A DNA stretch of 64,000 nucleotides, from contig CAYOEO010000001.1 in the NCBI GenBank assembly GCA_964403125.1, positions 1,384 through 65,383 on the forward strand, given 5' to 3'. The notes beneath the pieces are model-generated. The model was not told the DNA's origin and made no database searches. It saw nothing but the letters and a program-made list of their open reading frames with translations. Numbering within the stretch: position 1 is the first letter of the stretch; every line of letters starts with the position of its first letter. Shown one piece after another: positions 2,899 to 16,290 of the stretch. Source of the DNA: an uncultured Pseudomonadales bacterium (GTDB lineage Bacteria > Pseudomonadota > Gammaproteobacteria > Pseudomonadales > UBA7239). Made by a program: the position numbers and the translations under genes.

Positions 2899-3636
2899 AT
2901 GGAAAGTCGTCGTTTGCGCTTTGCATTACCTTGTTCAGTTCTTGCATGCAGCATCAGCTTGTTATTCGGCTGCGCTTCTGTCTCTACTGAAAGTGGCTAT
3001 GTATTCGCGCCAGAAAATGCCATTGATAATCCCAACCGCCCCGATCCTTTTTGCGCGCAAGTGCGTCGCTATGAAGGTGCAACACCTGCGTATTTTGCAA
3101 AATACCAACCGCAAGATGATTTAACTGTGCGTTTGCAAATGTTGGAGCCGCGCAGACTCAATCATCACAGTGTTGGTCCTGGTGTGTTGGTGCCACTGCC
3201 AGTGATTCCTGATCCCGTGGGCAATAGCAGAGCGGCGCAATACCGCAGCGCACCAGAGGGGCAATTCAATACTGTGAAGTTGGCGGTTTATCCGCTGCCT
3301 TTTCGCACTGGCTACTTTTTTACGCCATCACAAATGTGGTTAGAAACAGGCGGCAAGGTTTTGCATCCGGTAAAAGTGTCGCGCCACTATTCGGTTAACC
3401 ATGAAAATCGTGAAAAAGTTTTAGATATTTCGCGTGAAAAATTGCCCGCCCAGAGCGGAGAGTTCAATGCTTATGTGCTGGAGTTTAATGTCAAAGGTGT
3501 CGCTGGCTCTTATATGAAATTGCATGTTTCCGGTTTTGATCGCGAAGGTGTTGTGGTGCCAGAGCAAGTATTCAAACTGAGCACCAATCAAGCGCGTGTT
3601 TTTGATTGGAAATACGACACAGATTGCAATATTTGA
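2899..3636 (+). CDS. hypothetical lipoprotein
   Basis: 245-aa ORF. Signal peptide with lipobox LLFGC. I recognise no family. Sits immediately upstream of flp. Confidence 0.55.
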   Translation: MESRRLRFALPCSVLACSISLLFGCASVSTESGYVFAPENAIDNPNRPDPFCAQVRRYEGATPAYFAKYQPQDDLTVRLQMLEPRRLNHHSVGPGVLVPLPVIPDPVGNSRAAQYRSAPEGQFNTVKLAVYPLPFRTGYFFTPSQMWLETGGKVLHPVKVSRHYSVNHENREKVLDISREKLPAQSGEFNAYVLEFNVKGVAGSYMKLHVSGFDREGVVVPEQVFKLSTNQARVFDWKYDTDCNI

Positions 3637-3707
3637 TTTTTTATCAGCAGGATTGGCGGCTTATTCTGTTTGATTCCTTTCCAAGTCGTAACAGCGTGGA
3701 GTGCGTT

Positions 3708-3980
3708 ATGAAAAACATTTCTGTAAAAGGTAAATTGAAACAGCTCGGTCAAGGTATGACGGAATACATCATCATCGTTGCCTTGATTGCGATTGCTGGT
3801 ATTGCTGCGTACAGCTATTTCGGTCAAACCATGCAGGGTGCTGTAGCAGATGTTTCTACCGAATTGTCTGGTCAGCAATCAAAAGACACAGCAAAAGTGG
3901 GTGCTGCTTCGGCTGAAAAAGAAGCTGGCGTAGTAAAAGGTATGGGTAACTTTGATGATACCCAGCAAGGTCAAAAATAA
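3708..3980 (+). CDS. flp: Flp family type IVb/IVc prepilin
   Basis: Internal ATG at 3708 of track ORF 3606..3980, preceded by GTGGAG. Sequence MKNISVKGKLKQLGQG|MTEYIIIVALIAIAGIAAY matches the Flp G/XXXXEY processing motif followed by a hydrophobic helix. 90-aa precursor. Confidence 0.85.
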   Translation: MKNISVKGKLKQLGQGMTEYIIIVALIAIAGIAAYSYFGQTMQGAVADVSTELSGQQSKDTAKVGAASAEKEAGVVKGMGNFDDTQQGQK

Positions 3981-3995
3981 TCGGCTGTTTTTGTA

Positions 3996-5816
3996 TTGCG
4001 ATTATCAGGGATGAAGCCGCGCTGGTTATGGCAATCGTGGCCCGCTGTTGCTTTGCAACAGCGCGGTCAGGCCATGCTACTGGTTTTATTGTTTCTCACG
4101 GTTTTGATGTTGTCGCTGTTGGTATTGTTCAATACATCGCAATTAACGCGCGACAAAATGGAAGTACAAAATGCCGCTGATTCTGTTGCCTACAGCGCAG
4201 CCTTGTTAGAGGCGCGCCATCTTAATTTTACCGCTTATACCAATCGCGCCATGATCGCCAATGAAGTGGCATTGGCACAAACCATTGGTCTTGCAACTTG
4301 GTTGATGAAATGGGGCGGAACCTTTATCAGCCTCGGCAATATTTTAAATCAGGCTTTAGCGCCTATACCGATTGTTGGACCAATTTTAGCGGCTGCTGTA
4401 AAAGCTGCTTTCACAGCATTCGGCAATGCAGTTGCTGAGTTTTCTAATTTGGTAGGGCAATTTGCGGGTATTTTTTCAAAATTAGTTGCTGGTTTGAATA
4501 CTTTTTATGGTTATTCACAGTTGGCATTTCGTTTCGGTACTTATGAAACGATGTTGAGCATCAGCGATAGTTTGGTACAAAAAAATGCCCCTGGTGCCAA
4601 GATGGGTACGGTGTCTGAGTTTGTGCAATACCTCAATATGTTTTTGTTTGAGCAGTACAACAAAAGCTGTAAACCGGCTGATGCGATGAGTAAATCAGCA
4701 ACGGCAGAAGATCGTGACACCAATCGCGCGTGTATGCGACAAATGGCAGCGGCCGTGAATGATTCGCGTGATTTATGGAGTAAAAACCGCTCCAACTATA
4801 AATTAGGTGCGCAAGAGGAAGTCAGTTGGAAAATTCCTTTGCTGGGAAAATTTGGCTTCCATTTTAAAATTGGTATGTTTCAAGAAGGTGGCACGACTTT
4901 GCGTTATATCGCAGGTACAGGGCCAACAGCCAATCGAGAGCATTTCAACTGGTCGTCCATGGATACCAACGAATTTAAGTTAGGTATTGGTGTGTGGTTG
5001 TTTGGTGCGCACATGGGATTTGAGTTGCCGATGCCCCTAGGTTGGGGAACCATGCAATTGGCACACACCGATAAAAAAGATAAAAAACAATACAAAATTA
5101 TGGATTTGCCGAAGGGCGGTACTAAGTTAGGTCTTGCCGGCTGGGAAGCCGCTTACGGCGATACTTGGGGCAACAATTTATTGTCGAGCATCATGGCTTC
5201 GCCTGGAAAAGCGTTTTATCCGTGGGGGCCTGGCAACACCACACAAGTGCAAAGTTACGGCGATTTAGCACCGTTTCATACGATTGATCCTGATTATCTC
5301 AACGCATCAGGTCAAAGTTGGCAATTTGATTGGCCCGGCACCATTCCGCCACCGTATGTGGTGTGGGTTTATATGCCAGAAAAAAATACACGCACTTCAG
5401 ACAACATGGGCACAGCAAGCCCCGCAGGAAATTTACATCTCGAAAATATGGAAGCAGGGCAATCCTCAGATGATGCGGTTTCTTTAGGGCCTTTTGGACA
5501 AAAGCCTGGCTTGCAAGCGATTTCCAGTGGCGAAATTTATTACAAGCGTACCGATGGTTTGGATGAAGAACCCAATGCGTTTAGCCCGTATTGGGGTGCG
5601 CGTTTAGCGCAAGTAGATAACATGGTGTTGATCTCTGCCATGTTCGCACAAGAACCCAAATTGGCATGGGCTTTTACCGGCATTCAACAAAGTTCGTTTG
5701 ATTTGGCGGGGCAGGTGGATAACGTCAAAAAATCGGTCACCGATGAAATGACAGACATGGACGGTTACGCCAAAGACATGGTGGAAAATGCCATCAAAGG
5801 AATTTTTGGTTTATGA
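3996..5816 (+). CDS. TadG-like pilus assembly protein (Tad N-terminal pseudopilin-like domain plus large unknown domain)
   Basis: 606 aa. N-terminus QQRGQAMLLVLLFLTVLMLSLLVLFNTSQLTRDKMEVQNAADSVAYSAA resembles the TadG/TadE-like N-terminal region. I saw no obvious vWA MIDAS motif. The start may be the ATG at 4011. Confidence 0.65.
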   Translation: MRLSGMKPRWLWQSWPAVALQQRGQAMLLVLLFLTVLMLSLLVLFNTSQLTRDKMEVQNAADSVAYSAALLEARHLNFTAYTNRAMIANEVALAQTIGLATWLMKWGGTFISLGNILNQALAPIPIVGPILAAAVKAAFTAFGNAVAEFSNLVGQFAGIFSKLVAGLNTFYGYSQLAFRFGTYETMLSISDSLVQKNAPGAKMGTVSEFVQYLNMFLFEQYNKSCKPADAMSKSATAEDRDTNRACMRQMAAAVNDSRDLWSKNRSNYKLGAQEEVSWKIPLLGKFGFHFKIGMFQEGGTTLRYIAGTGPTANREHFNWSSMDTNEFKLGIGVWLFGAHMGFELPMPLGWGTMQLAHTDKKDKKQYKIMDLPKGGTKLGLAGWEAAYGDTWGNNLLSSIMASPGKAFYPWGPGNTTQVQSYGDLAPFHTIDPDYLNASGQSWQFDWPGTIPPPYVVWVYMPEKNTRTSDNMGTASPAGNLHLENMEAGQSSDDAVSLGPFGQKPGLQAISSGEIYYKRTDGLDEEPNAFSPYWGARLAQVDNMVLISAMFAQEPKLAWAFTGIQQSSFDLAGQVDNVKKSVTDEMTDMDGYAKDMVENAIKGIFGL

Positions 5817-6754
5817 ACCGTGTGAATCGCCAACGGCAACGCGGTCAAGCGATGACGGAATTCGCCATCGTCGCGGCGGCTGTTTTGGTTCCGCTATTTT
5901 TAATTTTGCCCGTGCTCACTAAATACGGCGAACTCAGCCAAACATCAGTAGAAATGGCGCGCTATGTGGCGTGGGAGCGCAGCGTTTGGCATGAGCCGGA
6001 TAAAATTCCCGCTGGTGTGGAGATTGTCGGTGGCAGCACATTTCCAGCAAAAACATCCAGCGTGATTGCTAACGAAGCGAAATTGCGCATGTTGGAAGCG
6101 CCAGACGCGCCTATCTTGTCGGAATCGGGTGCTGTGTTGAATGATTCCTCTTTGAATCCTTTTTTGTTTGATTATCAAGGTAAGCCATTAGTTGATGTAG
6201 GTGGTGTGCAAGTCAACGTCGATAAATTAAAAGAAACGCCAGGAATTGGTTACGAGGTATTGCGTTTCTTTACTAAAACTTTGCAACCTGTTTATAAATT
6301 ATTCAGTTGGTTGGGGAGTAAGCACAGTAATTTCTCACCGAATTTAGATGGTTATTTTGAAAGTGATGATCACATTGTCGCTATTCCGCTGAATAACATT
6401 TCTTATGCTGTGCCGGAAAATCAGAAAAAAACGGGTCTTGAAACAATACAAACTGTTCACTTAGCGATGTATGCAGATTCTGCCCTATTAGTGGATTCTT
6501 GGAGTGCGCAAGGTCCCGCTATGTTCAAAACACAAACGGGCGGTTTGGTGCCAAGTTCGTTCCTTAATAACGATGTGCTTAACACCATGCGTCGTGTGTT
6601 GTCTATCGCTTTATTCGAGCCAAAGTTAAAGCAACCAGCACCGGGAAGTTCCGACGGCTGGGATATGGGAGGCTACAACACAGACCCGTTCAATATCGGC
6701 GTGGATGAAGCCGATATTTGCGATAAAAATGGCGTGTGTTCGTTCAATGAATAA
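5813..6754 (+). CDS. TadE-like pseudopilin
   Basis: 313 aa. RQRGQA|MTEFAIVAAAVLVPLFL matches the G/XXXEF pseudopilin leader. Its ATGA start overlaps the upstream stop, indicating translational coupling. Confidence 0.75.
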   Translation: MNRVNRQRQRGQAMTEFAIVAAAVLVPLFLILPVLTKYGELSQTSVEMARYVAWERSVWHEPDKIPAGVEIVGGSTFPAKTSSVIANEAKLRMLEAPDAPILSESGAVLNDSSLNPFLFDYQGKPLVDVGGVQVNVDKLKETPGIGYEVLRFFTKTLQPVYKLFSWLGSKHSNFSPNLDGYFESDDHIVAIPLNNISYAVPENQKKTGLETIQTVHLAMYADSALLVDSWSAQGPAMFKTQTGGLVPSSFLNNDVLNTMRRVLSIALFEPKLKQPAPGSSDGWDMGGYNTDPFNIGVDEADICDKNGVCSFNE

Positions 6755-7439
6755 GCGCTGGCTGACACTTTGCATTTTCTTACTTTTTCCTGCGTGGGCG
6801 CAGGCGTGGCCATCGTTTGAGCGTCCCGATTATGTAGAAACTGATTGGACAGCCAACGACATGGTGTATAACGGCGTTCGTATGTATATCGAAAATATTC
6901 ACTGTGATTGCCAGTATGAAAAAATTCTCAATTACTACCGCAAGCATTGGGCAGAAGGTGAGATAGACGACAAAGGCTTTGTTGAAAATGATTTGGGTGA
7001 ACTGAAACAAATCAGTCGCGGTGATGAAAAATATTTCTTCTCTGTGCAAGTCAAAGCAGATCCTAATGATGCAGAAAAATCCGTCGGGCGTTTAGTTATT
7101 ACAGAGTTGCCGGGCAATCGCACTGCTAAAGTAGAGTTGGGTGCAGGCGTGCCCATGATGGGAAGCTCGGAAGTGGTGTCAGACATCAGTGATTCCATGC
7201 CGGGAAAACGCGCGCGCACAGTTGTACTTCTGAATGAAAAAAGCATCGTCGATAACATGGATTTTTATCGCATGCACTATGAAAATGCTGGCTGGAATTC
7301 TTTTTTAACGCCAGTGGATCCTTCCGTAGGATCGCAGGCACTGTCTTACAGAAAAGACGGTGTGGATATCAATATTGCCATTCATGAACAGGCGGGTATT
7401 TCTGTCGTCTTGTTTAACGAAGTGAAATCGGTGTTCTGA
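6747..7439 (+). CDS. secreted hypothetical protein embedded in the Tad locus
   Basis: Internal ATG of track ORF 6705..7439. MNKRWLTLCIFLLFPAWAQA|WP looks like a Sec signal peptide. The start overlaps the tadE-like stop by 8 nt. No family recognised. Confidence 0.5.
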   Translation: MNKRWLTLCIFLLFPAWAQAWPSFERPDYVETDWTANDMVYNGVRMYIENIHCDCQYEKILNYYRKHWAEGEIDDKGFVENDLGELKQISRGDEKYFFSVQVKADPNDAEKSVGRLVITELPGNRTAKVELGAGVPMMGSSEVVSDISDSMPGKRARTVVLLNEKSIVDNMDFYRMHYENAGWNSFLTPVDPSVGSQALSYRKDGVDINIAIHEQAGISVVLFNEVKSVF

Positions 7440-8264
7440 GTGCAATATATGAATGACTTCACTTCAAAAATAGCAGGGAGAAAGCAACAACTGGGGCAAT
7501 CCAGTATGGAATATATCGTAGTGACATCGGCGATTGTCTTTGCTTTGATGCAACCGATTTCACCGCCAGGATCTTTGCAATGCCCTGCTTCCTCTATACG
7601 CACTGATTGGTCAAAACACGAAAACAAATGCAGTGTGATGGAAATATTGGGGCAAGTATTGCGCAATCGTTATGAAGGTTATTCCTTTGCGATTTCTGCA
7701 TCGGAATATCCCAACTTTTTAGTGAATTTTAATAACGGCGGCAATGGCAGTACGGGTGGTGGAACAGGCGGTAACGGTGGCGGCAATGGCGGTTCTGGCG
7801 GTGGTTCAGATGATGGTGGTTCAACCTATACGCCACCAACTGGCACAGAAGCACTCGGTTTGGATGGGAAAACAGTTATCGGCACGGTATTAGCTGGCAA
7901 TGTTTACGACGATCAAGGCAATTTAATTGGCACGATAGATAGCAACGGCAATGTGATTGATAACGATGGCAACAAAATTGGTACGTATCCCGCTGCGGGT
8001 GGCGGTATGAGCAATTTCGTTGCAGTCGATAAAGATGGAAAAGTATTAGGCAAAGTAGATAAAGACGGCTTTGTTGTTGATGAAGATGGCAACATTGTGG
8101 GCAAACGCGATGGCGATGATGTTTTGCAAACCGATGTGTTGGGTAATGTGATATTGGATCAAAACAACAAACCAACCGTTATCGGAAAAGTTGGCAAGGT
8201 TGCGGGTAATGGCGACATTGTTGATGGTGGCGGTAATGTAATCGGCAAAATCGTTTTGGAATAA
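7440..8264 (+). CDS. Flp-leader pilin-like protein with poly-Gly/Asn linker and C-terminal D/G/N/V-rich repeats
   Basis: 274 aa, starting at GTG 7440 or ATG 7449. N-terminus KQQLGQS|SMEYIVVTSAIVFAL is Flp/pseudopilin-like. aa 98-127 read GGNGSTGGGTGGNGGGNGGSGGG. aa 139-274 hold about 8 units such as GNVYDDQGNLIGTI and VVDEDGNIVGK. Confidence 0.65.
   Translation: MQYMNDFTSKIAGRKQQLGQSSMEYIVVTSAIVFALMQPISPPGSLQCPASSIRTDWSKHENKCSVMEILGQVLRNRYEGYSFAISASEYPNFLVNFNNGGNGSTGGGTGGNGGGNGGSGGGSDDGGSTYTPPTGTEALGLDGKTVIGTVLAGNVYDDQGNLIGTIDSNGNVIDNDGNKIGTYPAAGGGMSNFVAVDKDGKVLGKVDKDGFVVDEDGNIVGKRDGDDVLQTDVLGNVILDQNNKPTVIGKVGKVAGNGDIVDGGGNVIGKIVLE
7854..8261 (+). repeat. coding tandem repeats (about 8 units, consensus roughly x-V-x-D-x-x-G-N-V-I-G-K-V)
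   Basis: Read directly from the translated ORF 7440..8264. The same unit type occurs in the cpaB extension. Confidence 0.75.
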
Positions 8265-8293
8265 TTTTGGTAAGTCTCTCCTAGAGGAAAGGT

Positions 8294-10273
8294 ATGTCAC
8301 TGGTCGAAGGGTTTAAAAAACAGAGCACACTGTCTATGTTTGTAGTGTCTGTCTTCTTAGGGTTAATTGCAGCAGGGCTTGCTGTGTTGTACCTAAAAAA
8401 TAGAGAAGCAGCATTAGCAAAAAAATATCAAAAGCCGCCAGAAGCTGAAGTGACGGTCATCGTACCTGTGCGTGATTTAATGCCAGGAGAGATCATCGCG
8501 CTGGATACCGTGGCCGCGAGAAAAATTCCTGAAAAATATGTAGGGCCTGATGTCATTACGGCGCAGTACTACCAAAAAGTAGAAGGTCGTCGCCTGCAAT
8601 ATCCGGCTGCGCGAGGCAAACCGATTCCATTGAACTCGCTGTCTGGTATCAACATGGGCGATTTTTCTGATTCGATTGCCGCTGGTCGTCGAGCAATTAC
8701 TATTAAAGTAGATCGTATTAATTCAATGGATGGCATGCTTCGTCCTGGCAATCACATTGATATTCTCGTTGGTATGCCTGCCAATCAAGCAGGCGCAGAA
8801 CCAACGCCGGGTTTAGAAAACGGTGGCGCAGAAGAAGTGGTTTTCCCTGTGTTGGAAAATGTGGTGGTCATTGCAACGGGTAGTCAGGATGCGAAGTCCA
8901 TGCAATCACAACGCGCAGGTGCTGTGATGACGGATAAAGATTATTCGTCTGTCACGGTTGATTTGTTTCCAGAACAAGTGGCGATGCTAAAAGTAGCGGA
9001 AGAGGCGGGGCGAATTATTGCTGCGTTGCGCAATCGTAATGATGGCAGTTCCAGTGGCTTTGATGCCGTGCGACCTTCGCAGTTGATGTCGTTGATGAAA
9101 AAAGCACGCAATGCAGAATTAGCGCGCGCATCCACAGAAGTGGTTCGAGATGCTAATGGCAATGTAATAGGAAAAGTGGTTGGCGGTGTTGTTTATGACG
9201 CACAAGGCAATGTTGTCGGCAAAGTGAATGCAAAAGGACAAGTGGTTGATGCTAAAGGCAAAGTGCTAGGTGAAAAAGTTAAAGCGCAATTGGCTTTAGG
9301 TGCGGATGGCAGACCGGTTGGACAAGTGGTTGGTGACAAAGTGTATGACGCAAACGGCAATCAAATTGGTCGCGTAGTCGATGGCAAAGTCGTATCGAAT
9401 GATGGTCGCATGTTGGGTCATGTCAGCGAATCGGTTGCGGTAGACGCAAAAGGCAATGTGATTGGCAATGTCGTCAACGGCGTTGTTTACGATAAGAACG
9501 GCAACCCCATCGGCAAAGTGAATGCGAAAGGGCAAGTGGTTGACGATAAAGGCAATGTGATTGGTTCACCCGTTGGTAAAGTTGCCGTTGATGCTAAAGG
9601 TAAACCCATCGGCAAAGTCGTTGGTGACAAAGTGTATGACGCAAATGGCAAATTGATAGCACGCGTTGATGCCAACGGCAATGTTGTCGATCTGAATGGA
9701 AAGGTTGTCGGTAAAGTGTCAGACGGTGTGCAGCAATCTAAAGTCGCCATTGGAAAAGATGGCAAAACTTTAGGGCGCATCTTGGATGGAAAAGTGATCG
9801 ACGCGATGGGCAATGTTGTCGGCACAGTCAACGCGGATGGCTCTGTCACTGATGCCAATGGCAATGTGATTGGACAATCAGCGGGCGATGCCTTGGTCGA
9901 TGCCAAAGGCAATATCGTCGCCAATGAAGTTGTCGGCAGCGATGGAAAATCTATCGGCAAAGTGATTGGCGATAAAGTGTATGACGACAAAGGCAATGTA
10001 GTTGCAACCGTCGGCGCTGATGGTTCTGTGACAACAACTGATGGCCGCACTTTAGATGTAACCGTGCAAGCGGGTACACCAGAGTCATCTCCACTATCAA
10101 CAGTTGATGGCAATATTCCCGACGTGGATGCAGCAGGTTCAGAAGGCGGCATCAGTGGTCGCAGCTATGAAAATATGAGCGGCGGCAACAAAGAAAATGG
10201 CGTACTGAAGCTGGATAAAACTTCTATTTCATCTGCATCACAAGATGCACAAGCATTGCCGAAAGGCAAGTGA
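8294..10273 (+). CDS. cpaB: Flp pilus assembly protein CpaB/RcpC with about 380-aa C-terminal extension (308-aa repeat block plus 70-aa tail)
   Basis: 659 aa. N-terminal TM helix (FVVSVFLGLIAAGLAVLYL), SAF-like segment (VIVPVRDLMPGEIIALDTV) and RcpC-like core (RAITIKVDRINSMDGMLRPGNHIDILV). From aa 282 to 589 I count about 19 repeat units, e.g. VYDANGNQIGRV and VVDDKGNVIG. Confidence 0.8.
   Translation: MSLVEGFKKQSTLSMFVVSVFLGLIAAGLAVLYLKNREAALAKKYQKPPEAEVTVIVPVRDLMPGEIIALDTVAARKIPEKYVGPDVITAQYYQKVEGRRLQYPAARGKPIPLNSLSGINMGDFSDSIAAGRRAITIKVDRINSMDGMLRPGNHIDILVGMPANQAGAEPTPGLENGGAEEVVFPVLENVVVIATGSQDAKSMQSQRAGAVMTDKDYSSVTVDLFPEQVAMLKVAEEAGRIIAALRNRNDGSSSGFDAVRPSQLMSLMKKARNAELARASTEVVRDANGNVIGKVVGGVVYDAQGNVVGKVNAKGQVVDAKGKVLGEKVKAQLALGADGRPVGQVVGDKVYDANGNQIGRVVDGKVVSNDGRMLGHVSESVAVDAKGNVIGNVVNGVVYDKNGNPIGKVNAKGQVVDDKGNVIGSPVGKVAVDAKGKPIGKVVGDKVYDANGKLIARVDANGNVVDLNGKVVGKVSDGVQQSKVAIGKDGKTLGRILDGKVIDAMGNVVGTVNADGSVTDANGNVIGQSAGDALVDAKGNIVANEVVGSDGKSIGKVIGDKVYDDKGNVVATVGADGSVTTTDGRTLDVTVQAGTPESSPLSTVDGNIPDVDAAGSEGGISGRSYENMSGGNKENGVLKLDKTSISSASQDAQALPKGK
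9137..10060 (+). repeat. coding tandem repeats (about 19 units) with a superimposed duplication of about 291-294 nt
   Basis: Units read from the translation. At DNA level, gttgtttatgac...ggcaaagtgaatgcaaaaggacaagtggttga at about 9188 recurs at about 9482. ggtgacaaagtgtatgacgcaaa at 9332 recurs at 9623. Confidence 0.8.
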
Positions 10274-10280
10274 GGCGGTA

Positions 10281-11642
10281 ATGCATAGTTTTGGAATGAC
10301 TAATATGAATCTCAAAAAAAATCTGAACGCATTATTTCACTTTCAAAAACAGTGGATGAAATGTTTTGCCATGTTGATGGCATTTCTACTGATGCATTCT
10401 GCTCAAGCGGCAGAACTACAACCCAAAGAAGTTTTGCTGTCTTTGTATAAAGGTGAAACTTATGTCATGAAAGTGGGTGACGTGGAGCGCGTGGTTGTGG
10501 GTAGCGGCTCTGTTATCAGCACGCGTTTATTGACAACCGGCGAATTGGTTATCGTCGCGGATGAGGAGGGGATGACCAATATTCACCTCTGGGGCAAGGC
10601 GGGTTGGCAGCACGACACCACCGTTTATGTTTTACCTGGCAGCACCACGCGCGCTGTTGCTGAAATTAGCGCGTTGCTGCGCGATGTAGAAGGTATCACA
10701 GTGAAATCTGTTTCTGGCAGGCCGGTGATTGAGGGTGATATTTACGAGCGCGACAAAGTGTTGGTAGAGCGTGTTGTTGCGCTGTATCCCAGTGTTATCA
10801 ATCTCACGCGTGTCTCTAATGCCTTCTCGGAAAAAATGGTTTACATGAATGTGCAAATTACCGAGTTCAATACCAATGATTTAGAACAGTTGGGTATTAA
10901 CTGGCAGACCGATATTGCAGGTCCAACTGCTGCTTTTTATAAAGGCGTTAAAACCAATTCAGTTTATCGTCCTGCACCCAGCAAAGATTTCACTGGCGAT
11001 TTAACTGCGCTGCCGTTCAAGAATGGTGATGGACAAGCGTATTTTGGCATTGCGACTGAAATTACTTCGCGGATTAGTTATTTGGTCAGCACGGGTGATG
11101 CTTTCTTGCTCGCTTCACCACGCTTGAGTGCGCGCAGTGGTGGTCAAGCAGAGTTTTTAGCGGGTGGACAAGTGCCGGTGGTGACCAGCAATATCAACGG
11201 TTCATCTGTTGATTACAAAGATTTTGGTATTAAGTTGAGTGTTGCGCCGCAAGCGGATACACGCGGCAATATTTCCGCAAAAATTTCTACCGAAGTCAGC
11301 GTGTTGGATCCGGCGAATGCGGTGGATGGAAATCCTGCATTCAAAACCAGAGGCACAACAACGGATGTCAATATGAAGGATGGAGAAACTTTGGTTATTT
11401 CTGGCTTAACTAACTCTGAAATCAGTCGAAGTTTAGATAAGGTGAAGTGGCTGGGTGATCTGCCTATCCTTGGAAAGTTATTCCGTTCTAAGTTTTTCCA
11501 AACGAAAAAAACTGAATTGGTTATTTTTGTAACGCCAACCATTATTGATGTGAACCATGACATCAATCGTGAAGAAGCTGCGCGTCGTGATGACATGATC
11601 AATCGCTTCAATAGTTCTTTTGAAAAAGGTCTGTTTGAATAA
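10281..11642 (+). CDS. cpaC: Tad secretin CpaC/RcpA
   Basis: Pilus-formation N-terminal region (LSLYKGETYVMKVGDVERVVVGSG). Secretin core (LASPRLSARSGGQAEFLAGGQVPV) and C-terminus (LGDLPILGKLFRSKFFQTKKTELVIFVTPTII). Start uncertain: 10281, 10296, 10305 or 10356. Signal peptide ends ...MHSAQA|AE. Confidence 0.85.
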   Translation: MHSFGMTNMNLKKNLNALFHFQKQWMKCFAMLMAFLLMHSAQAAELQPKEVLLSLYKGETYVMKVGDVERVVVGSGSVISTRLLTTGELVIVADEEGMTNIHLWGKAGWQHDTTVYVLPGSTTRAVAEISALLRDVEGITVKSVSGRPVIEGDIYERDKVLVERVVALYPSVINLTRVSNAFSEKMVYMNVQITEFNTNDLEQLGINWQTDIAGPTAAFYKGVKTNSVYRPAPSKDFTGDLTALPFKNGDGQAYFGIATEITSRISYLVSTGDAFLLASPRLSARSGGQAEFLAGGQVPVVTSNINGSSVDYKDFGIKLSVAPQADTRGNISAKISTEVSVLDPANAVDGNPAFKTRGTTTDVNMKDGETLVISGLTNSEISRSLDKVKWLGDLPILGKLFRSKFFQTKKTELVIFVTPTIIDVNHDINREEAARRDDMINRFNSSFEKGLFE

Positions 11643-11668
11643 TTAAGTTAGAAATAGAGATTTAGCCG

Positions 11669-13336
11669 ATGTTTGAAATTACAGTAAGCACAAAAGGCGA
11701 AAGTGATAATCTCGTGCGCTGCATGGGTAACCGCTGCGGCATAGGAAAATCCAGAGACAATCTTGTGCAATTGCGCGGTTGGAAAGTGGCTGGCTTGCAT
11801 GCGCAAATTGAAGAGCGCAATGATGGATTGCACATTAGCGATCAGGTTGATGCGGGTACTTTTGTCAACGGAAAGCGCGTCGATGCTTACGGGCCACTGA
11901 CAACATCCGATGTGATTACGATTGGTGCGTACAACTTACGCTGCAAACAATTAGATGTGGGTAATGCGTTAGCAGCAGCTAATGAAGATGGTGAGCAAGA
12001 CGCTGTAGCTGATGCAGGTGGCGGCAGTGCCGCCAGCGCGCCAGCATTCGGTGCTGTCGGCAGTGCGCAACAAGAGCAACTCATTTTGTGGCAGAGCCAT
12101 GTGCATGAAGAGTTGCTCAAACGCATGGATTTGAAGCGTATTGATGTCGGCACTATGTCGGATGAAGATTTGCGCAACCGCATCAAAGCCTTGATTGATG
12201 AAGTGTTGGATGGATTAGAAGGGGCTTTGCCGCCTTTTATTACACGAGCGCGTTTGACAGAGGATGTGTTGAATGAAGCGGTGGGCCTGGGACCTATGGA
12301 GGCGCTGTTGGCAGATGAGTCTGTCACAGAAATTATGGTCAACAGTTTTAATGATATTTACATCGAGCGCAGTGGGCGTTTGCAAAAATCAGATGTGAAT
12401 TACAGTAGCCACAAAGCAGTTCTTTCCACTATCGAGCGCATTGTTTCGCCATTAGGAAGAAGGATTGACGAAAGTTCTCCTATGGTTGATGCGCGCTTAA
12501 AAGATGGCTCTCGTGTGAACGCTATTATTCCGCCATTGGCGCTGAAAGGCCCTTGTATCACTATCCGAAAGTTTTCTAAGAAAAAATTACAGGCTTCTGA
12601 TTTGGTGGGCTTCAAAGCCGTTAATGAAAATATGATGAAGTTTTTGAAAATTTGTGTGGAGCAAAAACGCAATATTGTTATTTCAGGCGGTACTGGTTCT
12701 GGCAAAACAACACTATTGAATGTTCTATCCAACTTTATTCCTCACGGTGAACGCGTTATCACCATTGAAGATGCTGCTGAATTGCAACTGGCGCAGCCGC
12801 ACTTGGTGTCCTTGGAAGCAAGACCGCCGAATATGGAGGGACGCGGTGCTATCACGATTCGTGATTTGGTAAAAAACTGTTTGCGGATGCGTCCAGACAG
12901 AATTGTTGTTGGTGAGTGTCGCGGTGGTGAAGCCTTGGATATGTTGCAGGCAATGAACACCGGTCACGAAGGCTCATTGACGACAGGTCACGCCAACACG
13001 CCGCGCGACATGATTTCGCGTATGGAAGTTATGGTGATGATGGCGGGCATGGATTTACCCATACAAGCTATTCGTGAGCAAATTTCTTCTGCCGTTAATA
13101 TGATTGTGCAGCAGTCGCGTTTTTCTGATGGTAGTCGTCGTGTGACAGCCATCAATGAAATTACAGGTATGGAAACGGGTATTATCCAAATGCAAGAAAT
13201 TTTTCGTTTTCAGCAGGAAGGTTATGATGCGGAAGGGCGTGTTCGCGGTCATTTTGTAGCGACAGGGCGCGTGCCTGAGTTCTACGAAGATATGCGCAAA
13301 CGCGGTTTAGAAGTTGACATGAGTTTATTTGGCTGA
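11669..13336 (+). CDS. cpaF: CpaF/TadA secretion ATPase with N-terminal FHA domain
   Basis: 555 aa. aa 1-95 are FHA-like (GIGKSRDNLVQL.....GLHAQIEERNDGLHISD..DAGTFVNGKRV). An Ala/Gly-rich linker follows. Walker A is GGTGSGKTT, and the family box is VGECRGGEALDMLQAMNTGHEGSLTTGHAN. Confidence 0.9.
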   Translation: MFEITVSTKGESDNLVRCMGNRCGIGKSRDNLVQLRGWKVAGLHAQIEERNDGLHISDQVDAGTFVNGKRVDAYGPLTTSDVITIGAYNLRCKQLDVGNALAAANEDGEQDAVADAGGGSAASAPAFGAVGSAQQEQLILWQSHVHEELLKRMDLKRIDVGTMSDEDLRNRIKALIDEVLDGLEGALPPFITRARLTEDVLNEAVGLGPMEALLADESVTEIMVNSFNDIYIERSGRLQKSDVNYSSHKAVLSTIERIVSPLGRRIDESSPMVDARLKDGSRVNAIIPPLALKGPCITIRKFSKKKLQASDLVGFKAVNENMMKFLKICVEQKRNIVISGGTGSGKTTLLNVLSNFIPHGERVITIEDAAELQLAQPHLVSLEARPPNMEGRGAITIRDLVKNCLRMRPDRIVVGECRGGEALDMLQAMNTGHEGSLTTGHANTPRDMISRMEVMVMMAGMDLPIQAIREQISSAVNMIVQQSRFSDGSRRVTAINEITGMETGIIQMQEIFRFQQEGYDAEGRVRGHFVATGRVPEFYEDMRKRGLEVDMSLFG

Positions 13337-13345
13337 GAAAAAGCG

Positions 13346-14203
13346 ATGTCTGGTACAGGTATCTTAGTAATTTTTGTTCTGCTGTTCATCAGCTTGTCCA
13401 TTTTATTTTTCTTGGCAATGACGGTGGGAGCAAAAATACGCGCGCGTTTTGAGTCTCAGCTTTCTGAAGAAGCGAACATGAACTTGTCGGATATGTTCAT
13501 GTTTATGGATCCCAATATGTTGGTGCGTTATTACACCACGGCATTGATTGTTGTGCCTGCTCTGGTGTTGATCATAAAACATGACTTTCTCAGTTTTATT
13601 GTTGCGGTTGTTGTGATGGCTGTCGTGCCTAAAATGTTTTATGGCAGCATCAAAAAGTCGCGCATGAAGAAATTTGATGAGCAACTTCCAGATGCATTTA
13701 TGTCTTTGGCTAGCAGTCTCGGTGCTGGAACCAGTCTAATGGGGGCGATCGAAACCTTAGCAACGGAGCAGCCTGCACCCTTGGCGCAAGAGTTTTCTTT
13801 GTTGGTGCGCAAAATTAAGTTGGGTGTTAATTTTGATCAAGCGCTGGTTGATATGGAAAAACGTATTCCTTCGCAAGATTTTAGAGTGGCGCTGTCTGCT
13901 ATTCGTATTTCACGAGAAGTGGGCGGAAATCTTGTCGAAGTGATGGAAAAATTGGCAGATACCTTGCGTCAAAAAGCCGCGATGGAAGGAAAAATTGTTA
14001 GCTTAACTTCTCAAGGAAAGATGCAGGGTTATGTGATGACAGGCTTGCCTATTTTGCTGGCATGCGCGTTGAATGTAATTGAACCAGAAGCGATGAGCAA
14101 GTTGTATAGCACTACCACTGGGTATGTGGTGCTTGGCGTTATTGTCGTTATGCTTGGTATCGGCTTTTCGATAATTCGTAAAATTACTACGATTGATGTG
14201 TGA
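13346..14203 (+). CDS. tadB: Tad inner-membrane platform protein TadB (T2SS F family)
   Basis: 285 aa, polytopic. T2SSF-like segment LPDAFMSLASSLGAGTSLMGAIETLA. Position after cpaF fits. Confidence 0.8.
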   Translation: MSGTGILVIFVLLFISLSILFFLAMTVGAKIRARFESQLSEEANMNLSDMFMFMDPNMLVRYYTTALIVVPALVLIIKHDFLSFIVAVVVMAVVPKMFYGSIKKSRMKKFDEQLPDAFMSLASSLGAGTSLMGAIETLATEQPAPLAQEFSLLVRKIKLGVNFDQALVDMEKRIPSQDFRVALSAIRISREVGGNLVEVMEKLADTLRQKAAMEGKIVSLTSQGKMQGYVMTGLPILLACALNVIEPEAMSKLYSTTTGYVVLGVIVVMLGIGFSIIRKITTIDV

Positions 14204-15147
14204 ACTCTATGTGGTTATCCGTTCAAAAAGAGCTATCTGACTTATGGTTTATTTTCTTAAACCTAAGTGCTCCAGTGTTAATGTACACATCGGCGATTGG
14301 TATTGGTGTTTCAGTAACGCTAGTTGTTCTAGTCGTTAAAATTCTTGGTTCGCGTATCCCGCCTGAAAGCCGCGAATACAAAGACGAGTTGCCACCTGCG
14401 CTTAAATTTGTATGGCCAATGATTCGAATTATTGCTTATTACCTTTGCACCAACCTGCCCATTCCTTATTTAGATCGACTGGAAAAACGTTTGCAGCAAA
14501 CCGGTGTCGCGTACTATGTGAATGCGGAAGAGTTTTTTGCAATTCGCGTATTCAGTGCGTTTCTCTTTCCAATATTGGTGTTGCTTGCAGCATTGATGTT
14601 GAAAAAGCTTTCTTTGTTGATTTTTATGGGTTCTATTTTGATGGGCTTTTTCTTGCCGGTCATTTGGTTGAGCGAAACTAAAGTCAAGCGCGAAAAAGAA
14701 GTCATGCGGGCATTGCCAATGTACCTTGAGTTTATTTCTATGTGTGTGGAAGCGGGCTTAAACCTTACAGGCGCAATGAACCAAGCGGTAGAAAAAGGTC
14801 CCAGTGGCGCTTTGAAACACGAATTTTTAACGGTGATGCGTGATATTCGCGCGGGAGCTAGTAGGGCAGATGCATTAACGCGTATGGCGGAGCGCCTCGA
14901 TATTAAAGCAGTTAGCGCATTCGTTCGCGCCGTTATCCAAGCTGAAAAGTTGGGTTCTAGCATGAGTAAAGTGCTGAAAGTGCAGTCGGATCAGCGACGC
15001 AATGAGCGGTTTCAACGCGCAGAAAAACTGGCAATGGAAGCGCCTGTAAAATTAATCTTCCCGCTGATGGCGTTTATTTTTCCCGTGACATTCATGATTC
15101 TTGCATTTCCTATCGTAATGAAATTTATGAGTCAAGGGCTTCACTAA
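14200..15147 (+). CDS. tadC: Tad inner-membrane platform protein TadC (T2SS F family)
   Basis: 315 aa, polytopic. ALPMYLEFISMCVEAGLNLTGAMNQAV. Its GTGA start overlaps the tadB stop (alternative ATG at 14209). Confidence 0.8.
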   Translation: MNSMWLSVQKELSDLWFIFLNLSAPVLMYTSAIGIGVSVTLVVLVVKILGSRIPPESREYKDELPPALKFVWPMIRIIAYYLCTNLPIPYLDRLEKRLQQTGVAYYVNAEEFFAIRVFSAFLFPILVLLAALMLKKLSLLIFMGSILMGFFLPVIWLSETKVKREKEVMRALPMYLEFISMCVEAGLNLTGAMNQAVEKGPSGALKHEFLTVMRDIRAGASRADALTRMAERLDIKAVSAFVRAVIQAEKLGSSMSKVLKVQSDQRRNERFQRAEKLAMEAPVKLIFPLMAFIFPVTFMILAFPIVMKFMSQGLH

Positions 15148-15500
15148 TGCTGCAAGGCATTTTGCAACTCAATCACGAATCTTTACCTCTGACGAAATGT
15201 CAACAGACATCCAATATTTTTGAACGCATGCGAGGCTTAATTGGTCGCCCTGAGCCAATAGCTAATGAGTCCTTATGGATTACGCGTTGTAATTCAATCC
15301 ATACATTTTTTATGCGGTACACCATCGATGTGATTTTTATCAATACGAAAGGTGTTGTTCTAAAGGTTTCTGCTCATGTTGCTCCTTGGCGATTGCGGAT
15401 GTGTTTTTCTGCAAAGTCTGTTTTGGAGTTGCGTGCGGGTGATGCTGAAAAATTGGGGCTTACAGTGGGATCTTATGTTGAGTTTCTGCCCAAAAGGTAA
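15147..15500 (+). CDS. DUF192 (COG1430-like) domain protein
   Basis: 117 aa. MRGLIGRPE...SLWITRCNSIHTFFMRYTIDVIFIN resembles DUF192. A TAATG overlap with the tadC stop indicates coupling. Confidence 0.65.
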   Translation: MLQGILQLNHESLPLTKCQQTSNIFERMRGLIGRPEPIANESLWITRCNSIHTFFMRYTIDVIFINTKGVVLKVSAHVAPWRLRMCFSAKSVLELRAGDAEKLGLTVGSYVEFLPKR

Positions 15501-15504
15501 ATGA

Positions 15505-16290
15505 GTGATGACACAAAGAATTGTTTTACTGCTGGCAGTTGTTTTTTTTATAGGGTGCGCTTCATCACCTGATTTAACAACACTCGCAGAGTGGCGCGCA
15601 AAAGCCGACAAGGCTTATCAAGAAGGGCAATATCCGACTGCTTTGCAGTACTACCAAAAGTTATCTAAAGCAGCTCCTTCGGAGGCGGATATTTGGTTTA
15701 GATTGGGCAATACACATGCGCGTATGGATCAAACTGACGAGGCAGTAAAAGCCTATCGTGAAGCGGTGTTGCGCGATAACCACTTTGCTAAAGCGTGGTA
15801 TAACGCGGGTTTTAATCAGTTGCGCGCATCAGCACAAACATTTTCTGAAGCCTTGCGTTATTTGCCACCTAGTGATCCTATTTTTCAGATAGCAAAATCT
15901 TACAACCAACAATTGTTGCAGTTGATGGAGCAGCAGAATCAAGCATTAGAAAAATTATCAAAAAGCAAAGAGGAGTCCAAACCTCTTGATGTCAAAAAGG
16001 TAGAGATGATTGTTTTAGATGGAAAACCGCAAAAAATTTCTGATTTACCGCCTGTGCTGATGCCAGATCAAACATCACCAGAGGCTTTAGAGGCAGCGAA
16101 AATAGAGCAACAGCAAGAGCAAGAGCAGGAAGTGCAACAACACTCTGATGCATCACAACCTACAGCAACCGAGACAACATCAAAGCCTGATGAGAAAAAA
16201 GAAAACCCAAAAGGTAAGGAAGATGCAGAGAAAAATAATTTGTGGCATCCGCCTTTGTTAAAAGCAACAGGTGAGCAGGCTGCTCAATAA
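15505..16290 (+). CDS. TPR-repeat lipoprotein, TadD-like
   Basis: 261 aa. Lipobox FFIGC. TPR-like helices (AYQEGQYPTALQYYQKL, WFRLGNTHARMDQTDEAVKAY). Acidic/Gln-rich low-complexity tail. Confidence 0.65.
   Translation: MMTQRIVLLLAVVFFIGCASSPDLTTLAEWRAKADKAYQEGQYPTALQYYQKLSKAAPSEADIWFRLGNTHARMDQTDEAVKAYREAVLRDNHFAKAWYNAGFNQLRASAQTFSEALRYLPPSDPIFQIAKSYNQQLLQLMEQQNQALEKLSKSKEESKPLDVKKVEMIVLDGKPQKISDLPPVLMPDQTSPEALEAAKIEQQQEQEQEVQQHSDASQPTATETTSKPDEKKENPKGKEDAEKNNLWHPPLLKATGEQAAQ

Follow-up and report, generated by a model that had tools for sequence, protein, structure and literature searches.

The 64,000-nucleotide (nt) stretch of genomic DNA from an uncultured Pseudomonadales bacterium analysed here (hereafter, the window) contains a tad locus in which one gene (7449..8264, + strand) encodes a protein of 271 amino acids (aa) that combines a Flp-class prepilin signal with a C-terminal domain of beta-hairpin repeats. 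The most plausible, if far from certain, explanation of this protein is that it is a processed Flp-like minor pilin subunit with a lineage-specific domain, a member of a hitherto undescribed family within one Tad (type IVc) subtype. The prepilin signal and the link of the protein to the Tad machinery are solid, and a role as a minor pilin is strongly suggested. Tad pili are widespread organelles of adhesion and colonization.

An earlier reading of the same DNA (hereafter, the sequence-only reading) had delineated an open reading frame (ORF) at 7440..8264, a Cys-containing segment, a linker at exactly nt 7731-7820 and a repeat domain, all of which are found in the sequence, as is the N-terminus that it quoted (KQQLGQSSMEYIVVTSAIVFAL); the N-terminus of the protein contains RKQQLGQSSMEYIVVTSAIVFALM. 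This mechanical ORF (+ strand) is longer, with a GTG start at 7440 and 274 aa. The start in the database copy P0001, which is 100% identical to the protein under study, and in all homologues is ATG 7449, and residues are numbered from this codon unless GTG numbering is indicated. The gene follows the upstream stop codon after 10 nt and precedes cpaB by 30 nt, and a scan for promoters and terminators around it was uninformative, with no convincing internal one between the gene and its neighbours. Given the short gaps and the lack of a convincing internal signal, the gene is read as a member of an operon, which suggests co-transcription with the assembly genes.

The prepilin signal

In Caulobacter crescentus PilA, the mature chain begins at Ala15 and carries Glu19 and Tyr20, so that Glu occupies position +5 of mature Flp prepilins (PMC11067988). 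Placing Glu at +5 in the protein from the window predicts a cut after G16 (QQLG|QSSMEY), which separates a leader of 16 aa (MNDFTSKIAGRKQQLG; 7449..7496, + strand), with a net charge of +2 and the conserved Gly at -1 as its last residue, from a mature N-terminus and helix alpha-1 (QSSMEYIVVTSAIVFALM; 7497..7550, + strand; Glu at +5 and Tyr at +6) delineated with AlphaFold2 (AF2) and hhalign. The arrangement is that of the Flp/Fap family (PF04964), with QQLG|QSSMEY followed by the hydrophobic helix IVVTSAIVFALM.

The motif is present beyond chance expectation. We scanned the six-frame translation of the window for G-x4-E-[YF] with a subsequent stretch of 12 residues of which at least 11 are hydrophobic or small, and obtained four matches versus a mean of 0.15-0.22 (maximum 2) in two kinds of shuffled controls with 100 shuffles each. 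All four matches are N-termini of tad ORFs on the + strand, namely, Flp, the first TadE-like protein (TadE1), the protein under study and the second TadE-like protein (TadE2). The excess over the roughly 0.2 matches expected, together with the confinement to tad genes, indicates that the leader is more than a chance resemblance. The motifs quoted in the sequence-only reading for Flp (LGQGMTEY), TadE1 (GQAMTEF) and TadE2 (GQSATEF) are correct. That reading had also assigned a Flp-class leader to the protein, and this part of the claim stands, given the motif conservation and the hhalign results below; its cut (GQS|SMEY) falls one turn late, the G/XXXXEY rule giving QQLG|QSSMEY. With the register corrected, all four proteins share G|Q-x-x-x-E-[YF], the residue after Glu being Tyr in Flp and the family described below and Phe in TadE1 and TadE2. 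Glu5 and Tyr6 together form the hydrogen-bond network in the core of the Caulobacter filament, and Glu19 and Tyr20 are needed for assembly but not for processing (PMC11067988).

Profile-profile comparison with hhalign aligned the N-terminus of the family in register with both the Flp orthologues of the locus, at 96.6% probability (E 5.6e-10), and the TadE1 orthologues, at 94.2% probability (E 1.2e-7). Both alignments cover the first ~34 residues, and nothing past the helix aligns; the N-terminus is thus a homologous class III signal with its alpha-1 segment, and the remainder of the protein forms a separate family. Judged by these sequence comparisons, the N-terminus is a true Flp-class prepilin signal.

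A conserved N-terminal module with lineage-specific tails

A search with the full-length protein retrieved only five proteins of the same architecture (42-100% identity), and a scan of GTDB genomes yielded one locus, in a metagenome-assembled genome (MAG) of an uncultured Pseudomonadales, and no cultured host. The N-terminal 99 aa alone retrieved 20 representatives at 50% identity, and a profile of the N-terminal module (A3) extended the family to 211 proteins with a median length of 139 aa and without a Pfam domain. These proteins are named 'hypothetical protein' in MAGs of Gammaproteobacteria, with the label 'Flp pilus assembly pilin Flp' occasionally given to short members by the Joint Genome Institute (JGI).

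In an alignment of 125 members, to which all conservation figures for the family refer, no variation is seen at E21 or Y22 and hardly any at G16 or Q17. The pattern G-Q-x3-E-Y occurs inside the first 60 residues of 123 of the 125 proteins, with Q always at +1. The leader is variable and positively charged (median charge +3), with the Gly at median position 14. Of the 125 members, 108 also contain the second family motif, G[YF]x[YF]Ax[ST], itself a portion of NYxGYSYAxSxSEYP. The protein from the window displays the full set of family features, that is, the Flp-type signal, NYxGYSYAxSxSEYP and a gene that immediately precedes cpaB in a locus of the Flp-TadG-TadE-...-CpaB type.

The C-terminal parts differ among lineages. 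A typical tail consists of ~70 aa and is acidic (17.6% D/E vs 5% K/R), ending with Phe in 59 and with Pro in 33 of the 125 members; this terminal residue is possibly a docking motif. Tails with hairpin repeats, some of them strongly acidic, are found in the branch nearest the window (P0001-5, P0009, P0011, P0013, P0014, P0025 and L015), and the combination of a Gly/Asn linker with seven beta-hairpins only in the window's own branch. In L021 (309 aa) and L024 (337 aa), a Gly-rich linker leads into a few hairpins and into a domain of another kind, ~200 aa in size and with Cys residues. Thus, the family consists of a conserved N-terminal module and C-terminal modules swapped between lineages, a pattern that fits an exposed or displayed module of a minor pilin.

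Predicted architecture of the protein

AF2 was run with 125 sequences, an earlier run with 5 sequences having left the N-terminal half below 50 in predicted local distance difference test (pLDDT) scores. The model comprises a helix at residues 17-34 (pLDDT ~87), a loop, a second helix at residues 63-84 (pLDDT ~75), a disordered linker at residues 93-124 (pLDDT <50) and two blocks of beta-strands, with six strands (three hairpins) at residues 133-179 (pLDDT 83-94) and eight strands (four hairpins) at residues 190-267 (pLDDT 90-97). The layout proposed in the sequence-only reading, with a pilin-like helix, a flexible linker and a repeat domain, is therefore retained, and the tail swapping fits the displayed module that it envisaged.

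The two helices are connected by a Pro-rich loop with a Cys pair (7551..7634, + strand; low pLDDT), formed by C45 (7581-7583) and C61 (7629-7631), which correspond to C48 and C64 in GTG numbering. The pair is invariant in the five close homologues and present in several distant members of the family, and is missing from many others. Helix alpha-2 (RNRYEGYSFAISASEYP; 7635..7712, + strand), delineated by AF2 and conservation, carries the family signature, in which G77, Y78, A81, S83 and P88 are invariant or near-invariant. This motif (RYEGYSFAISASEYPNF; 7660-7715, residues 72-90) resembles the Greek-key signature of beta-gamma-crystallins (P0016, E 2.6e-5 summed over five repeats); as the motif is helical in the AF2 model, the likeness is probably fortuitous. 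A sequence-profile search of the PDB with the protein gave no matches.

The Gly/Asn-rich linker (7731..7820, + strand) differs in length and composition even among close homologues, the version in P0005, a homologue from activated sludge, being Pro-rich, as expected of a flexible linker. At the DNA level, it contains a weak 21-nt tandem array (7737-7793, 2.7 copies, 69% matches), and an array this weak does not support the linker being a contingency repeat.

The beta-hairpin repeat domain (7845..8249, + strand) comprises 14 strands arranged in blocks of three and four hairpins with [DN]xxG tips. It scores 27.8 bits against DUF3659, over the cut-off of 24.8, and 24.9 bits against Bflower_2, under the cut-off of 38 bits, and searches of the whole protein against Pfam and NCBIfam returned repeat families only and no pilin model. 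The hairpin tips (DDQG, DSNG, DNDG, DKDG, DEDG and DGGG) fit the pattern [DNEQ]xxG. The domain, with its seven hairpins, is assigned to the DUF3659/beta-flower class. We know of no function assigned to this fold. Repeats of the same class form an extension of the adjacent CpaB (see below), with which the domain shares 31-41% protein identity, with a value of 34% for the domain as delineated above. At the DNA level, only short matches (16-68 nt) and no extended similarity to cpaB were detected, and CpaB is no closer to the domain than unrelated beta-flower proteins such as P0006, which led us to reject a recent copying of the domain from the adjacent gene.

Position of the family in a Tad subtype

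We compared the gene order across 17 related loci by tblastn and four short contigs by blastp, with relatives down to 26-30% identity. The conserved order is Flp, TadG-like protein, TadE-like protein, a ~230-aa protein, the family gene, CpaB with repeats, secretin, FHA-TadA, TadB, TadC, DUF192 protein, tetratricopeptide repeat (TPR) protein and TadE. In loci that are readable on both sides, the family gene is almost always located between the gene for the ~230-aa protein (or TadE1) and cpaB; the L021 locus departs from the common order on its downstream side. Because this position is kept in the relatives, the family gene belongs to the syntenic core of one Tad subtype and is not an accessory passenger. 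The subtype itself is distinct and gammaproteobacterial, being marked by the FHA-TadA fusion, the beta-flower extension of CpaB and the lack of tadV and tadZ in the locus.

Comparison with known Tad pilins and beta-flower proteins

The protein is neither a typical Flp/Fap pilin nor a typical TadE/TadF pseudopilin. Flp/Fap pilins are small subunits of about 45-90 aa without an extra domain, as opposed to the 271 aa of the protein from the window, with its core of ~70 aa, linker and beta domain of 135 aa. TadE and TadF (PF07811) share with it the G/XXXXE[FY] processing motif, the hydrophobic helix and the location of the gene in a tad locus. Unlike these proteins, it has Tyr instead of Phe after the Glu, does not match PF07811 and lacks the globular TadE body: in TadE and TadF, a globular domain follows the N-terminal helix directly, whereas AF2 predicts a helix-loop-helix and then a disordered linker. 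TadE and TadF are substrates of TadV according to Tomich et al. (2006), as cited in PMC12307814.

A close parallel for the N-terminal module is offered by KilK and KilO of the Myxococcus xanthus Kil pilus, which likewise have a short leader, a cleavage motif and an all-helical core of two helices, are Flp-like rather than TadE-like, and are encoded inside a tad-like cluster beside TadE/F/G-type minor pilins (PMC12075869). They have been proposed to serve as Flp-like adapters below the tip complex (PMC12075869). However, KilK and KilO are about 59 aa long and carry no appended domain, whereas the protein from the window reaches 271 aa with its linker and beta-hairpin repeats, and its core bears a distinct second motif (NYxGYSYAxSxSEYP) and a Pro/Cys loop; no homology past the N-terminal signal was tested for or found.

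The overall design, in which an N-terminal helix with a class III signal precedes an additional C-terminal domain, is shared with Caulobacter CpaL, in which a pilin module is joined to a vWA (von Willebrand factor A) domain (PMC12607857), and with KilN and TadG (PMC12075869), the extra domains of which have been suggested to be displayed at the pilus end (PMC12607857, PMC12075869). These proteins differ from ours in having a lollipop fold (helix and beta-sheet), vWA or other large domains and PF13400-related matches, and often lack Glu5. By contrast, the protein from the window has a helical hairpin core, keeps Glu5-Tyr6 and bears beta-hairpin repeats on a disordered linker. It is, like them, a pilin-like module with an extra C-terminal domain encoded in a tad locus, a likeness of design that does not imply homology. 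The sequence-only reading had considered such an arrangement unusual for Flp-type systems with their very small pilins. This does not hold for the locus itself, in which TadE1 (313 aa) and TadE2 (259 aa) share the leader, and has been overtaken by the publication in 2025 of the modular CpaL, KilN and TadG and of the Flp-like adapters KilK and KilO (PMC12607857, PMC12075869). A further analogy, and only that, is provided by the archaeal bindosome, in which sugar-binding proteins carry class III signal peptides on a functional cargo domain; these proteins are archaeal, their peptidase is PibD and no Tad machinery is involved.

The beta-flower fold has been described with [DNEQ]xxG hairpin tips (Durairaj et al., 2023; PMC10584680). 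A further hallmark of the fold is the closure of its hairpins into a shallow barrel with 4-, 5- or 6-fold arrangement. Like the beta-flower/DUF3659 proteins (PF21784, PF21785, PF12396; PMC10584680), the repeat domain is composed of short antiparallel hairpins with tips of this kind; its DUF3659 match is above and its Bflower_2 match (24.9 vs 38 bits) below the cut-off, whereas the neighbouring CpaB matches the beta-flower families strongly. We found no literature linking DUF3659 with a pilus.

The recognition in 2025 that Tad minor pilins form modular tip complexes that set the function of the pilus (PMC12607857, PMC12075869) means that the general principle, a Tad pilin-like module with an extra domain, is already known. 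What is new is a family without a Pfam model or literature, with a Flp-like N-terminus and a helical core, a fixed place by cpaB and a fusion to a beta-flower-class domain. It adds to the Tad systems a conserved, unannotated family of 211 proteins with interchangeable C-terminal modules. Furthermore, two adjacent genes, the family gene and cpaB, tie the beta-flower/DUF3659 repeat to a defined envelope machine, offering a place to test the function of this fold.

A minor pilin and its alternatives

Under the minor-pilin interpretation, the prepilin would insert into the inner membrane via its short hydrophobic helix, and the 16-residue leader would be cut off after Gly16 (QQLG|QSSMEY) by a prepilin peptidase of class A24 with its gene in another part of the genome. 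The mature helix alpha-1, keeping Glu5-Tyr6, would then dock among Flp subunits as a probable low-copy subunit, positioned in the manner of an adapter pilin directly below the TadG/TadE/TadE tip complex. The helical-hairpin core would remain in the filament, and the C-terminal part would be held outside on the flexible Gly/Asn linker; the displayed part would be the seven-hairpin DUF3659/beta-flower domain in the lineage of the window and an acidic tail or another domain elsewhere. Cleavage, incorporation into the pilus and position in the filament, as well as any ligand of the repeat domain, are what we infer from the features described above.

The placement beneath the tip draws on Glu5. Among minor pilins of type II secretion systems (T2SS) and type IV pili (T4P), such as GspK and PilX, an absent Glu5 marks the tip-capping subunit. 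The protein from the window keeps E5-Y6, as Flp does, and the TadG-like protein of the locus lacks Glu5, suggesting a low-copy Flp-like subunit below the TadG/TadE/TadE tip. The sequence-only reading had placed the protein as a candidate tip or minor pilin; a location at the extreme tip of the pilus is unlikely, the TadG-like protein being the one without Glu at +5, and the function as a filament-displayed adhesin expected in that reading is only putative.

Several observations weigh against the minor-pilin interpretation. The hydrophobic segment of the protein is short and marginal, with a Kyte-Doolittle maximum over 19 residues of 1.47, compared to 2.2-3.1 for Flp, TadE1, TadE2 and TadG, and terminates at a conserved Q-P-x-x-P-P. 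The Flp_Fap model (PF04964) gave no match to the protein at E<=0.01, although this is a weak test, given that Flp of the locus itself scores 17.6 bits against a cut-off of 32.2; one of 20 family members matched the model, at E 0.1. The TadE model (PF07811) also failed to match the protein, with one of 20 members matching at E 0.82, whereas TadE2 of the locus scores 51 bits. The PF13400 'Tad' model gave no match either, the locus having a separate TadG-like gene. Because these membership tests failed, the protein is not filed in the Flp_Fap, TadE or Tad families. In the AF2 model, the core of ~70 aa is a helical hairpin without the beta-sheet head of pilins, the Cys-bracketed loop (residues 35-62) is of low confidence, and the predicted template modelling score (pTM) of the whole is 0.42. 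No A24 prepilin peptidase gene (tadV/cpaA) is present among the ORFs of the tad locus and 20 other ORFs of the window, and inspection by eye, without a Pfam run, of the ORFs upstream of seven related loci revealed no obvious one. Prepilin peptidases are promiscuous. The Kil pilin of Myxococcus is also processed by an enzyme encoded outside its cluster (PMC12075869). Finally, all family members come from uncultured organisms, and the same repeat class fills the adjacent periplasmic CpaB, so that the repeat domain may act in the periplasm.

The last point leads to the most serious alternative, which we regard as possible but distinctly less likely, namely, that the protein is a periplasmic pseudopilin or assembly factor which is processed or membrane-anchored and stays in the periplasm, its hairpins binding the beta-flower extension of CpaB or the N-domain of the secretin. 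Strand or hairpin complementation could then couple the inner-membrane platform to the alignment complex. The location of the family gene immediately upstream of cpaB in nearly all loci with a readable downstream flank, the repeat class shared with CpaB at 31-41% identity and the short hydrophobic helix are all compatible with such a role, and TadE and TadF were first named pseudopilins. Moreover, the acidic tails of most members, with their conserved terminal aromatic residue or Pro, resemble a docking peptide, and the CpaB repeats begin where the secretin-binding hairpin of P. aeruginosa RcpC would be (PMC12307814). However, most family members lack hairpin repeats, yet the CpaB extension is kept in their loci, so that pairing between repeats cannot be the core function of the family. 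The invariant Glu5-Tyr6 points to packing within a filament, lineage-specific tail swapping is seen more typically in exposed modules than at a conserved interface within a machine, and there is no DNA similarity to cpaB that would suggest recent exchange.

A more far-reaching and rather unlikely possibility is that the family represents an unrecognized fourth class of Tad pilin-like subunit, in which the variable C-terminal module sets the function of the pilus, or else that the repeat domain co-assembles with the beta-flower array of CpaB or encloses the hydrophobic pilin helix, many beta-flowers being known to enclose a helix (PMC10584680). In the first case, a beta-flower-type domain would be carried on a pilus, the first functional context for this fold; in the case of co-assembly or helix enclosure, the protein would form a physical link between the growing filament and an enlarged ring in the periplasm.

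It is highly improbable that the protein is a second, alternative major pilin forming its own filament decorated with repeat domains along the full length. Such a role would agree with the Flp-like N-terminus with E-Y and with the JGI annotation of a few short members as 'Flp pilus assembly pilin Flp', but a canonical Flp gene stands at the head of every related locus, the family gene is located among the genes for minor pilins and assembly proteins, and an appendage of 25 kDa on each subunit of a filament that, in Tad-type pili, is 42-46 Å wide would need to fit through the secretin (PMC11067988, PMC12075869). Least credible of all is a plain Sec signal anchor or an ordinary exported repeat protein with a coincidental likeness to a Flp leader: the marginal hydrophobicity of the helix and the lack of both a Pfam pilin match and a peptidase gene in cis are set against G, Q, E and Y being invariant or near-invariant in register across 125 proteins while the leader varies, the significant profile-profile matches to Flp and TadE, the enrichment of the motif (4 vs 0.15-0.22 expected) confined to tad genes, and the absence, as read from the sequence, of an AxA-type signal peptidase I site after the helix.

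The tad locus of the window

The locus spans positions 3700-17100, with all genes for which the strand was recorded on the + strand, and includes neither tadV/cpaA nor tadZ/cpaE. The candidate for the major pilin, Flp (3708..3980, +), carries KQLG|QGMTEY and scores 17.6 bits against Flp_Fap. It is followed by the TadG-like large minor pilin (3996..5816, +), which matches PF13400 (Tad, 3.1e-08) and has the N-terminus GQAMLLV without Glu at +5. This N-terminus (QQRGQAMLLVLLFL) sets it apart from the other four pilin-like proteins, which all have the Glu, and recalls the tip-capping minor pilins of T2SS and T4P. The next gene encodes the TadE-like pseudopilin TadE1 (5813..6754, +; RQRG|QAMTEF, 313 aa).

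Between TadE1 and the family gene lies the gene for the ~230-aa protein (6747..7439, +), which carries a signal peptide of the Sec type (...PAWAQA) and is matched by no Pfam model. Most related loci have a gene for a counterpart (23-90% identity) immediately upstream of the family gene, and the ~230-aa protein may be a dedicated partner.

Downstream of the family gene, CpaB/RcpC (8294..10273, +; 659 aa) matches TIGR03177 (1.3e-34), RcpC and SAF, and consists of canonical SAF and RcpC domains to about residue 290 and a C-terminal beta-flower extension of ~370 aa with ~16 beta-hairpin units (Bflower_2 2.5e-34, Bflower 2.2e-21). P. aeruginosa RcpC binds the secretin via a single beta-hairpin (PMC12307814), and the repeats of CpaB start at the position of that hairpin. 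The long, repeat-bearing CpaB recurs in the related loci in which cpaB is readable. The secretin RcpA/CpaC follows (10281..11642, +; PF00263, 7.2e-40), and then the FHA-TadA ATPase, in which the FHA domain is N-terminal, TadB and TadC (11669..15147, +), identified by the Pfam assignments of their orthologues. The locus is closed by a DUF192 protein (15147-15500; PF02643), a TPR protein in the position of TadD (15505-16290) and the TadE-like pseudopilin TadE2 (16290..17069, +; 259 aa; PF07811 TadE, 1.2e-13; RQRG|QSATEF). This layout, with the FHA-TadA fusion, the closing DUF192, TPR and second TadE genes, and neither tadV nor tadZ/cpaE, recurs in many of the 17 loci.

Upstream, flp is preceded by genes for a cyclic nucleotide monophosphate (cNMP)-binding protein (2392-2847) and, at 2899-3636, a protein of 245 aa. 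L001 has this pair upstream as well, and L015 has the 245-aa protein, so the tad locus may be under cyclic-nucleotide control.

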